From assembly GCF_057098645.1 (NCBI RefSeq), contig NZ_CM169472.1: a stretch of 64,000 nucleotides of DNA, one strand, 5' to 3'. The position numbers were made by a program, and so were the translations under genes. Positions 48,765 to 53,798 of the stretch are shown piece by piece. Numbering within the stretch: the first letter of the stretch is position 1; the number at the start of each line of letters is the position of its first letter. The notes under the pieces are model-generated. The model did no database searches. It had not been told where the DNA came from and saw nothing but the letters and a program-made list of their open reading frames with translations.

Positions 48765-48840
<76 letters not shown>

Positions 48841-48879
48841 ACGATGCGTTTACGTACCAAATTTGCTGGGTGCAAAATT

Positions 48880-48955
<76 letters not shown>

Positions 48956-49536: not shown

Positions 49537-49929
49537 ATGAAAAGATTACGCAATAAAATGACCACCGAAGAACTGGCTGAATGCCTCGGTGTGGCTAAAC
49601 AAACAGTTAACCGTTGGATCAGAGAAAAAGGCTGGAAAACGGAAAAATTTCCCGGCGTGAAAGGCGGTCGTGCCAGACTTATTCTGGTCGATACGCAAGT
49701 TTGCGAGTTTATTCAGAACACGCCAGCCTTCCATAACACACCGATGCTTCTGGAAGCCGAAGAACCCCTTGCCGAATACGCACCGGGGATTCGCACTCCT
49801 GCTTATCGGCAAATCATAAGCGCAATAGACAACATGACTCACAGTGAGCAGGAAAAAGTTGCGCAATTTTTGTCACGCGAAGGAATTCGTAATTTCCTTG
49901 CTCGTCTCGACATAGATGAATCAGCTTGA
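49537..49929 (+). CDS. yfeD: YfeD DNA-binding protein, 130 aa
   Basis: Paralog of yfeC with the same TTEELAECLGVAKQTVNRWIREKGW HTH. Confidence 0.85.
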   Translation: MKRLRNKMTTEELAECLGVAKQTVNRWIREKGWKTEKFPGVKGGRARLILVDTQVCEFIQNTPAFHNTPMLLEAEEPLAEYAPGIRTPAYRQIISAIDNMTHSEQEKVAQFLSREGIRNFLARLDIDESA

Positions 49930-49968
49930 CATCCTCCACGCCCTGAATGACGAGGATCCCTGCTACGT

Positions 49969-51177
49969 TCAGGCTGTCGCCTGAATCATTTCGGTGGGTT
50001 CCTGCTTCAACGAGTGGCCTGACTGCACCATCTCTCCACAGGCAAGAACGGCGTGCCCCGCCGCTAAAATGTTACGAGCGCCGTTTACATCGGCGCTCGC
50101 TGTATATCCACATACCTGGCATCTGAATTTACTTTGTGACAGGCGATTTTCTTTCGCTGTATGACCACAGCACGCGCAACGCTGGCTTGTGTACGCTGGC
50201 GGAACAGCAAGCACCTGACCGCCTCGCCAGAGCTGCTTGTACTCAAGCTGGCGGCGCATTTCATACCAGCCCTGATCCAGTATCGAACGGTTTAAACCTG
50301 ATTTTGCCCGGACATTGCGCCCCGGCTGGCTGACCGTACCCGCTGCTGACTTTGACATGTTGCTGACCTTCAAATCCTCAATGACTATCATTGCGTGGTT
50401 TTTGCTGACGGTCGTTGTGACTTTGTGAAGGTAGTCTCTGCGGATATTTGCGGTACAGGAATGCAGTCGCTGTATTTTGCGTTTCTGCTTCTGCCAGTTA
50501 TTGCTGAATTTGACCTTGCGGCTTAACTGTCGCTGAAGTCTCGCCAGCGTCTTCTGGTTTTTCTGAAAACTGTTTACAGGCTCAAAGACTGTGCCATCTG
50601 ACAGCGTGGCGAGTTTAGCCACGCCAGCATCCAGTCCGACCATTGATGCTGAAGGGTGAACCGGAGTTGATACTTCACTTTCTGTCTGAATACTGATGTA
50701 CCACTTACCGCAGGACTGGCTGACAGTGACATTTTTCACAACACCCGTGACCTGACGGCTGTTCCGGTAGCGCATCCAGCCAAGTTTCGGCAGAAAAATA
50801 CGGCTGTTTTCCTGATCGAGCTTAACGCCCTGCTGGTAGCGGAATGCATCATTCTGTCCCCGCTTTTTGAATCGGGGAAAAGCAGCCCGCTTCTGGAAGA
50901 AGTTTTTGTAAGCCCGCTCAAGGTCTTTCAGTGACTGTTGCAATGGCTGTGAGGGCGAATCTTTAAGCCATTGCGTTTCAGTGGCGTTTTTCCACTCAAC
51001 CAGCCAGGAAGCCATTTTCCCGTAAGGGATGTGTTTATTACCGGCCTCATGATTCTCATTCTGACGTGCCAGAGCACGATTGAAAACGAAACGACATGCA
51101 CCTGCGAAGCGCCTCATTTCACGCTCCTGTTGACCACCGGGTCTTAACTGGAATTTAAATGCCTGTAGTCGTTTCAC
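49969..51177 (-). CDS. tnpB: TnpB (IS605 OrfB family; RuvC-like RNA-guided nuclease fold), 402 aa, apparently intact
   Basis: RuvC motifs ([23 protein letters not shown]) and zinc finger CACCGH...CQVCG. Confidence 0.85.
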
Positions 51178-51184
51178 AGGCCAA

Positions 51185-51615
51185 ATGATACTTTGGTCTG
51201 TGAAAAAAGAAACCGATATCCGGCGTGGAAGGCATTGTGTTTTCCTGATGCATGTTCACCTGGTCTTTGTCCCAAATACTGACGCCAGGTTTTTGACCAT
51301 GACGCGACAGAAAAACTACGCACTTACTTTTCAAATGTATGTGCTGATTTTGAAGCTGAACTGGTTGAAATGGATGGCGAACCAGATCACGTCCATTTGT
51401 TAATTAACTATCCTCCCAAACTGGCGATATTCAGTCTGGTAAACAGCCTCAAAGGCATATCGAATAGGTTACTGCGACGAGATCGACCAGATATTGCAGT
51501 CAGGTATTACTACAAAGGCGTTATGTGGAGTCCTGGCTATTTTGCCAGTAGCTGCGGAGGTGCGCCAATATCCGTCATCCGCCAATACATTGAACAACAG
51601 CAAACACCTGGTTAG
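51185..51615 (+). pseudogene. IS200-type Y1 (HUH) transposase TnpA, disrupted by frameshift
   Basis: N-terminal part (HCVFLMHVHLVFVP) in one frame and C-terminal part (MDGEPDHVHLLINYPPKLAIFSLVNSLKG...WSPGYFASSCGGAPISVIRQYIEQQ) in another. Confidence 0.75.
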
Positions 51616-51676
51616 GTGGAAAACCGCGCCTTATATCCCCGCCCTGAAGGACGGGGTTTTACGGCGCACCGGATAA

Positions 51677-51712
51677 ATAAAAAACGGCAGGGGTATTTCT
51701 CCTGCCGTTTAT
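51677..51712 (-). terminator. gltX rho-independent terminator
   Basis: AACGGCAGG-ggtatttct-CCTGCCGTT followed on minus strand by U-run. Confidence 0.7.
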
Positions 51713-53400: not shown

Positions 53401-53476
53401 GGGGGATTAGCTCAGCTGGGAGAGCACCTCCCTTACAAGGAGGGGGTCGGCGGTTCGATCCCGTCATCACCCACCA
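53401..53476 (+). tRNA. valU: tRNA-Val (UAC), copy 1, with G at position 4
   Basis: 76-nt tRNA; differs from copies 2 and 3 only at position 4 (GGGGGATTAG vs GGGTGATTAG). Confidence 0.85.
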
Positions 53477-53520
53477 ACTACTTTATGTAGTCTCCGCCGT
53501 GTAGCAAGAAATTGAGAAGT

Positions 53521-53596
53521 GGGTGATTAGCTCAGCTGGGAGAGCACCTCCCTTACAAGGAGGGGGTCGGCGGTTCGATCCCGTCATCACCCACCA
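53521..53596 (+). tRNA. valX: tRNA-Val (UAC), copy 2
   Basis: GGGTGATTAGCTCAGCTGGGAGAGCACCTCCCTTACAAGGAGGGGGTCGGCGGTTCGATCCCGTCATCACCCACCA. Confidence 0.93.
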
Positions 53597-53642
53597 CTTT
53601 CTCGCCAGCTAAATTTCTTGTAAAAATGTGAAGTACCGAAGT

Positions 53643-53718
53643 GGGTGATTAGCTCAGCTGGGAGAGCACCTCCCTTACAAGGAGGGGGTCGGCGGTTCGA
53701 TCCCGTCATCACCCACCA
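53643..53718 (+). tRNA. valY: tRNA-Val (UAC), copy 3
   Basis: Identical to copy 2. Confidence 0.93.
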
Positions 53719-53722
53719 CTTC

Positions 53723-53798
53723 GGGTCGTTAGCTCAGTTGGTAGAGCAGTTGACTTTTAATCAATTGGTCGCAGGTTCGAATCCTGCACGACCCACCA
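53723..53798 (+). tRNA. lysV: tRNA-Lys (UUU)
   Basis: GGGTCGTTAGCTCAGTTGGTAGAGCAGTTGACTTTTAATCAATTGGTCGCAGGTTCGAATCCTGCACGACCCACCA. Confidence 0.93.

Follow-up and report, generated by a model that had tools for sequence, protein, structure and literature searches.

An IS609 copy between yfeD and gltX of Escherichia coli with a frameshifted tnpA, a full-length tnpB and a predicted guide RNA

What becomes of a TnpB protein and its guide RNA once the transposase of the element that carries them has been lost? The question is raised by a 64,000-nucleotide stretch of DNA (NCBI RefSeq assembly GCF_057098645.1, contig NZ_CM169472.1; the whole stretch is called the window here), in which an element of the IS200/IS605 family of insertion sequences (IS) lies between yfeD and gltX with tnpB intact and tnpA split across two reading frames. 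Our answer is that this is very probably an IS609 copy that has become fixed, is not autonomous and is in slow decay. It is widely reported that tnpB copies outnumber and outlast tnpA. IS609, its TnpB protein (InsQ) and the yfeD-gltX insertion are already known and present in RefSeq annotation, and the biology of TnpB and its omega RNA is well established; as a discovery, the insertion therefore carries little weight. The locus is of interest instead as a natural series for the decay or persistence of TnpB and its guide RNA after transposase loss.

The ends of the element were set by aligning the window with an empty yfeD-gltX site (L003), which reveals a clean gain of 1747 bp after TTTAT and no target duplication, and with copies at other sites; canonical IS609 copies are 1748 bp long. 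Reading along the minus strand, which carries tnpB, the order is left end (LE), tnpA (reversed), tnpB and right end (RE), and the junctions (marked by a slash) are ...TTTAT/CCGGTGCGCC... at the LE and ...GGAGGATGTCAA/GCTGATTCATC at the RE, where the cleavage site lies directly after TCAA. The element bears subterminal imperfect hairpins on one strand rather than terminal inverted repeats. Assignment to IS609 was made by proxy, using as references the insQ copy of K-12 (97.4% identity, 45 differences) and a copy whose tnpA is named 'IS200/IS605-like element IS609 family transposase' by the Prokaryotic Genome Annotation Pipeline (PGAP; 97.7% identity), and on this sequence comparison the window element is IS609. 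The initial annotation had recognised an IS200/IS605 element, and profile matches bear this out: the intact TnpA of a relative (L004) matches NF033573 at 147.6 bits (cutoff 55; 2e-43), and the window TnpB scores 378.1 bits on NF040570 (guided_TnpB; cutoff 100). The insertion that it had placed at 49930-51675 is likewise real, but the empty-site comparison moves both ends (Table 1). It had also correctly located the RE at the yfeD stop codon, except that the RE does not merely abut the stop: the element's TTGA rebuilds the last position of the terminal Ala codon together with the stop, turning GCA TAA into GCT TGA. The YfeD protein is unaltered, with the accession WP_000826499.1 at both occupied and empty sites.

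The transposase gene, of the Y1 (HUH) type, is present only as a pseudogene. Its reading frame is divided between 51185-51403 and 51370-51615 on the plus strand, and alignment with an intact IS609 tnpA (L004 2125-2556, 143 aa), from which the window tnpA region differs by 11 nt, confirms that the split noted initially comes from a 1-bp deletion that reduces a run of four A residues to three. Five more lineage-specific amino-acid changes lie downstream of the frameshift. The two genes are divergent, with start codons 7 bp apart. A different lesion, a stop-loss (TAG to CAG, window position 51613), is common to the K-12, EDL933 and 14EC033 copies (L002, L005 and L073) and absent from the window; by our reading of the sequence it lengthens the open reading frame (ORF) through the LE into flanking DNA, and the PGAP label is 'incomplete'.

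The RE hairpin, which the transposase needs, is damaged as well. In the family, positions 49935-49943 pair with 49948-49956, with compensatory changes in relatives, and in the window substitutions at 49953 and 49948 disrupt two pairs of this helix, a double loss that no other aligned E. coli copy shows; folded as DNA, the hairpin reaches -3.1 kcal/mol against -7.7 in the K-12 copy. A hairpin had been proposed at 49931-49957, and a 6-bp stem between 49931-36 and 49952-57 can form there, but it is not the family-conserved one. Every yfeD-site copy sampled has an A-to-T change in the hairpin, pointing to one ancestral insertion; the second change of the window is shared with EDL933 and 14EC033 only.

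The only other place occupied by IS609 in the O145 strain RM9872 (NZ_CP028379.1 5,136,369-5,138,012; L079 2313-4056) is a TetR/AcrR-family pseudogene between yjfZ and ytfB. This second copy has a canonical RE hairpin and an intact tnpB with Y49, P115 and N361, whereas an independent loss of 4 bp has shifted the frame of its tnpA; strains 33E and ERL05-0623 have an intact tnpA at this site. Because both of its IS609 tnpA genes are frameshifted, RM9872 would make no IS609 TnpA, and by proxy neither would the genome of the window, which differs from RM9872 by a few bases and in the number of tRNA-Val genes given below. With its own tnpA dead, its RE hairpin damaged and the second O145 tnpA frameshifted, the window element would thus be unable to move on its own IS609 transposase.

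The distribution of the insertion was examined by megablast of positions 49900-51700 against 5426 complete E. coli genomes. The 1801 nt recur at 100% identity in 24 of them, mostly O145 or O145:H28; in RM9872, RefSeq labels the genes 'RNA-guided endonuclease InsQ/TnpB family protein' and 'tnpA, IS200/IS605 family transposase, frameshifted'. IS609 copies that are 97-98% identical occur in 4858 of the 5426 genomes (~90%), with ~3265 copies at the ydcO site. Queries made from the two yfeD/gltX insertion junctions, one for each, found them in 535 and 533 genomes, O157:H7 EDL933 among these, and the remaining genomes, ~90% of E. coli, have the empty yfeD-gltX allele. Differences of 19-50 nt between orthologous copies at the yfeD site mark the insertion as old, and the tnpA lesions of these copies are not the same: a frameshift in O145, a stop-loss in EDL933 and 14EC033, and a wrecked gene in EC17GD31 and P19_598, whose tnpB also contains two stop codons. 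The shared diagnostic substitutions suggest that the locus arose by a single ancient insertion, which would have proceeded by single-strand 'peel and paste' 3' of TTTAT and into the last sense codon of yfeD. One ancient insertion would then be found in ~535 genomes and in at least four states, namely with tnpA frameshifted, with the tnpA stop lost, with tnpB intact and with stops in tnpB.

The initial annotation had described the TnpB protein of the window as intact, with RuvC I-III and a zinc finger, and indeed the ORF runs uninterrupted through 402 codons. It aligns over its full length with ISDra2 TnpB (8EXA/8H1J; E=4.7e-55), with D183, E267 and D363 placed on Asp, Glu and Asp residues of 8EXA which we take to be the catalytic D191, E278 and D361; the zinc-finger cysteines C334, C337, C353 and C356 (two CxxC pairs) are present. 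Close homologues carry Pfam PF12323, PF01385 and PF07282, and the window protein shares 97-98% identity with ordinary IS609 TnpB encoded elsewhere. Inactivating substitutions would have spoken against an active nuclease; the RuvC triad is kept, but, judged against 27 relatives and 4 other E. coli copies, the window lineage has changed at three conserved positions (Y49H, P115Q and N361S). N361 precedes the catalytic D363 by two positions, and all 26 relatives that align at its column have N there, as do the 4 other E. coli copies. Purification of an 'IS609' TnpB is described in PMC12781874, in the available part of which no cleavage result is reported for that protein.

The guide RNA of such a protein had been placed on the minus strand around the tnpB stop codon, and covariation supports this position. 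A scan of species-representative genomes gave 67 related loci, and in every full-length relative homology ends exactly after GGAGGATGTCAA. In a gap-free alignment of 22 IS609-like elements, covering the final 180 nt of each, a seven-helix model has 97.7% of cells paired, compared with 38-49% when partners are slid by 1-3 columns, and compensatory changes at 7 pairs (29 cells) as opposed to 1-2 in the slid controls; its covariation score was reached by none of 500 shuffles. The minimum-energy fold of the K-12 copy gives the same seven-helix structure. Helix 6, a TCAGRC/GYCTGA hairpin, is 99% paired and tolerates G-U intermediates; in this stretch RNAalifold proposes another pairing, of columns 194-197 with 205-208. 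A covariance-model search at the tnpB 3' end found matches to two families at the right place and on the right strand in the window, the K-12 copy and relatives, but none in the window element at or above its Rfam gathering threshold: RAGATH-18 (RF03064) matches helices 4-5 (49999-50042) at 29.5 bits against a threshold of 44.9, and HgcC (RF00062) matches 49915-50036, from helix 5 to past the RE, at 16.0 bits against 50; on HgcC the K-12 copy scores 22 bits and relatives as many as 35.6.

The IS609 scaffold therefore resembles HgcC and RAGATH-18 and is a formal member of neither. Both, like sot0042 (RF02656), are RNAs linked to tnpB 3' ends (PMC4615843, PMC11061315): HgcC and archaeal 'sense overlapping transcripts' have been tied to these ends, and a 3'-overlapping tnpB transcript was seen in E. 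coli K12 RNA-seq data (PMC4615843), while RAGATH-18 RNAs guide IS607 TnpB nucleases (PMC11061315). The 3' part of the HgcC consensus, CCccCGcccUUuAgggCGggGAGGAGGUCAG, mirrors the IS609 RE hairpin and terminus, and the RAGATH-18 consensus CCUguGGAG...UGAAgcAGgAA fits helices 4 and 5, although all three families were built from archaeal or IS607 elements, unlike IS609. Taken with the covariation, these likenesses support a guide-RNA scaffold, as read from the sequences, at the tnpB 3' end.

What such an RNA would target follows from the insertion site. Left ends of the relatives were located by a search with the hairpin loop motif, and TTTAT or TTTAC precedes 11 of 11 independent insertions in them as well as all E. 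coli copies examined. TnpB is said, in work associated with Karvelis (2021) and Meers (2023), to take its guide RNA from the 3' end of tnpB and to use the target site of the transposon as its transposon-associated motif (TAM). On this model TnpB, if expressed, would bind RNA from the 3' end of its own transcript, comprising the scaffold (~50095-49926) and a guide (49925-49910) antisense to the last yfeD codons. The empty yfeD-gltX allele reads TTTAT+GCTGATTCATCTATGT, that is, a guide match directly after TTTAT, whereas the only guide match within the window is the RE junction itself, preceded by TCAA and not by a TAM. The ribonucleoprotein (RNP) would accordingly be expected to cut DNA reading TTTAT+GCTGATTCATCTATGT, which would be present only in the uninterrupted allele and absent from the genome of the window, and so to cut empty alleles and spare its own locus. 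Because TCAA replaces the TAM at the RE junction, the nuclease would be latent, lacking a resident target. Owing to N361S and the broken terminal stem, we consider it possible but somewhat doubtful that the window TnpB/omega RNA pair is still catalytically competent.

The target of the predicted guide leads to the strongest of the alternatives, namely that selection keeps tnpB and the omega RNA after tnpA has been lost, as a selfish anti-loss or drive device or through a function at the level of the host. In its selfish version, the nuclease cuts empty yfeD-gltX alleles that arrive by recombination or gene transfer, and the guide does match the empty allele, which ~90% of E. coli genomes have. 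Both IS609 copies of RM9872, with independent frameshifts in tnpA, retain an intact tnpB, as does the K-12 copy, where tnpA is a pseudogene and insQ intact, and pN/pS (the ratio of non-synonymous to synonymous polymorphism) in tnpB is 0.16-0.5 between copies. That ratio between paralogues, however, mirrors the active past of the element and not its state after fixation; against the closest orthologue, 14EC033, the window tnpB has a pN/pS of 0.86 (2 synonymous and 6 non-synonymous changes), and the changes of the window lineage are mostly non-synonymous and lie at conserved positions, N361S included. The terminal stem of the omega RNA is broken, and the same-site copies of EC17GD31 and P19_598 have tnpB stop codons. 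We therefore regard selective maintenance of this kind as unlikely.

Several observations nevertheless weigh against a simple history of decay. For its length, tnpA carries more window-specific substitutions (8 in 431 nt) than tnpB does (6 in 1209 nt; Fisher p=0.014), and neither O145 copy has a broken tnpB ORF, although this is 2.8 times as long as tnpA. The combination could mean that some selection still acts on tnpB and that decay is not the whole story. An A/C mismatch in helix 5, found in canonical E. coli copies, is also repaired in the window copy. Finally, the predicted immobility covers the IS609 transposase alone, and a TnpA from another IS200/IS605 element, which might act in trans, lies outside it. 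The wider proposal, that E. coli IS609 tnpB/omega RNA modules in general are kept by selection after the death of their transposase, with the guide destroying incoming empty alleles, seems to us improbable. If it held, the insertion would be a self-protecting, drive-like allele, as the guide of a fixed copy always matches its own empty allele (TTTAT plus flank), and O145 would be an example, with both IS609 copies lacking a working tnpA and both retaining a full-length tnpB. With the empty allele present in ~90% of genomes, the idea of anti-loss or drive is directly testable in a tractable organism.

It is far less probable that TnpB here is a domesticated, nuclease-dead RNA-guided regulator of yfeD or gltX of the TldR type. 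As in TldR systems, a TnpB-family protein is fixed next to host genes in the window and has no working transposase with it, and the guide runs antisense to the 3' end of yfeD. The window differs from these systems in that its TnpB retains the RuvC D-E-D residues and a full-length C-terminus, on which ground we rejected this reading, and in that the element ends are still present and the guide has no dedicated target: the guide is whatever flanks the RE, as in every copy, and has no TAM-flanked target within the window. The closeness of the protein to ordinary IS609 TnpB elsewhere is a further objection.

We rejected, as hardly credible, an autonomous and active IS609 whose apparent tnpA frameshift would be programmed or would stem from an error in sequencing or assembly: the deletion does fall in a short homopolymer, but sequencing error, a caveat of the initial annotation, is ruled out by the identical sequence of 24 independently assembled and concordant complete genomes, PGAP marks the gene as frameshifted, further changes have accumulated downstream of the shift, the RE hairpin is damaged, and we know of no case of programmed frameshifting in IS200/IS605 tnpA.

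Table 1. Features of the IS609 copy and its flanks, in window coordinates.
Feature	Position	Strand	Basis or remark
IS609 element, 1747 bp	49926..51672	-	Empty-site comparison (L003) and alignment with copies at other sites
TAM/target pentanucleotide 5'-TTTAT-3'	51673..51677	-	Directly 5' of the LE
LE subterminal hairpin CCCCGTCC-TTCA-GGGCGGGG	51637..51656	-	DNA fold -9.6 kcal/mol; kept in relatives
tnpA pseudogene (Y1/HUH transposase)	51185..51615	+	1-bp deletion in A-run at ~51274-51276
tnpB (insQ-type), 402 aa, GTG start	49969..51177	-	No internal stop; RuvC and zinc finger kept
Predicted omega RNA scaffold, seven helices	49926..50095	-	Covariation in 22 relatives and sub-threshold Rfam matches
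Helix 1 (predicted)	50095-50079	-	
Helix 2 (predicted)	50072-50067 with 49934-49929	-	
Helix 3 (predicted)	50064-50048	-	
Helix 4 (predicted)	50042-50038 with 50005-50001	-	
Helix 5 (predicted)	50034-50012	-	
Helix 6 (predicted)	49984-49969	-	tnpB stop codon inside
Helix 7 (predicted), the RE subterminal hairpin	49935..49956	-	DNA fold; broken at 49953:49938 (T/T) and 49948:49943 (A/G)
Invariant RE terminus GGAGGATGTCAA	49926..49937	-	Same in 27/27 aligned relatives; sequences diverge directly after
Predicted 16-nt guide GCUGAUUCAUCUAUGU	49910..49925	-	Directly 3' of the RE boundary; from the TnpB model
yfeD	49537..49929	+	Last 4 nt (49926-49929) are element sequence
gltX terminator hairpin	51682..51710		Once directly after yfeD too, now 1.75 kb away

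Comparison with known systems places this fixed and decaying IS609 copy among its relatives. The K-12 IS609 (insQ, tnpA; 1748 bp) matches the window copy in its divergent gene arrangement, in both termini and in the TTTAT that flanks its LE. It sits between ydcL and ydcO, and K-12 lacks the element at the yfeD site, as the initial annotation had said. Besides the insertion site, the two copies differ in their tnpA lesions, an internal stop plus the stop-loss in K-12 and the 1-bp deletion in the window, and in that K-12 retains the canonical RE hairpin, N361, Y49 and P115, all altered in the window copy. ISDra2 TnpB (8EXA, 8H1J) is a distant homologue of the window TnpB that shares the D-E-D residues, the CxxC..CxxC motif and, as predicted for the window, a guide RNA at the tnpB 3' end running to the RE boundary; its TAM is TTGAT rather than the TTTAY of IS609, and its tnpA is co-directional with tnpB rather than divergent. 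IS608 of Helicobacter pylori resembles IS609 in inserting 3' of a TTAC-type tetranucleotide, in an RE that ends in TCAA, in imperfect subterminal hairpins on one strand and in making no target duplication, and differs from it in host, in sequence and in having co-directional, overlapping tnpA and tnpB genes.

Among the related loci, one in Citrobacter amalonaticus (L007) encodes a TnpB 93% identical to that of the window and has an LE hairpin ~62 nt upstream of tnpB; since the hairpin lies directly upstream of the gene, the locus belongs to the IS609 lineage as an IS1341-like derivative that lacks tnpA. A sister lineage (L027-L034; Photorhabdus and Klebsiella pneumoniae ATCC 13883), with TnpB identities of 60-63%, has right ends with a hairpin 14 nt longer and another helix 6, and the same terminal GGAGGATGTCAA. 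Three TnpB-like E. coli proteins of 452-563 aa (P0001-P0003) are 97% identical to the window TnpB over ~81-86% of its length and may be fusions or have mis-called starts.

A simple sigma-70 scan of the minus strand found no convincing promoter for tnpB or the omega RNA. In most enterobacterial relatives (L009-L055) a perfect TATAAT, seen by eye, lies 7-8 nt upstream of the tnpB ATG, a position that points to a tnpB mRNA with little or no leader. In E. coli IS609 (window 51140-51215, minus strand), TATCAT and GTG stand in place of TATAAT and ATG, and an inverted repeat, GCCTGT-N9-ACAGGC (51161-51181), spans its tnpB start codon. On the tnpB strand ~50 nt downstream of the RE, a terminator-like hairpin followed by a T-run (49861-49878, minus strand) lies inside yfeD and could by chance end tnpB/omega RNA read-through antisense to that gene.

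Beyond the element, tRNA-Val genes downstream of gltX number three in the window (53401-53798), four in RM9872, three in 14EC033 and two in P19_598, and upstream of yfeC there are two tRNA-Ala genes in the window (48765-48955) and one in the EDL933 assembly. Outside the window, annotation lists the chromosomal ampC (BlaEC) of RM9872 (L078 1572-2705) as a pseudogene containing an internal stop.

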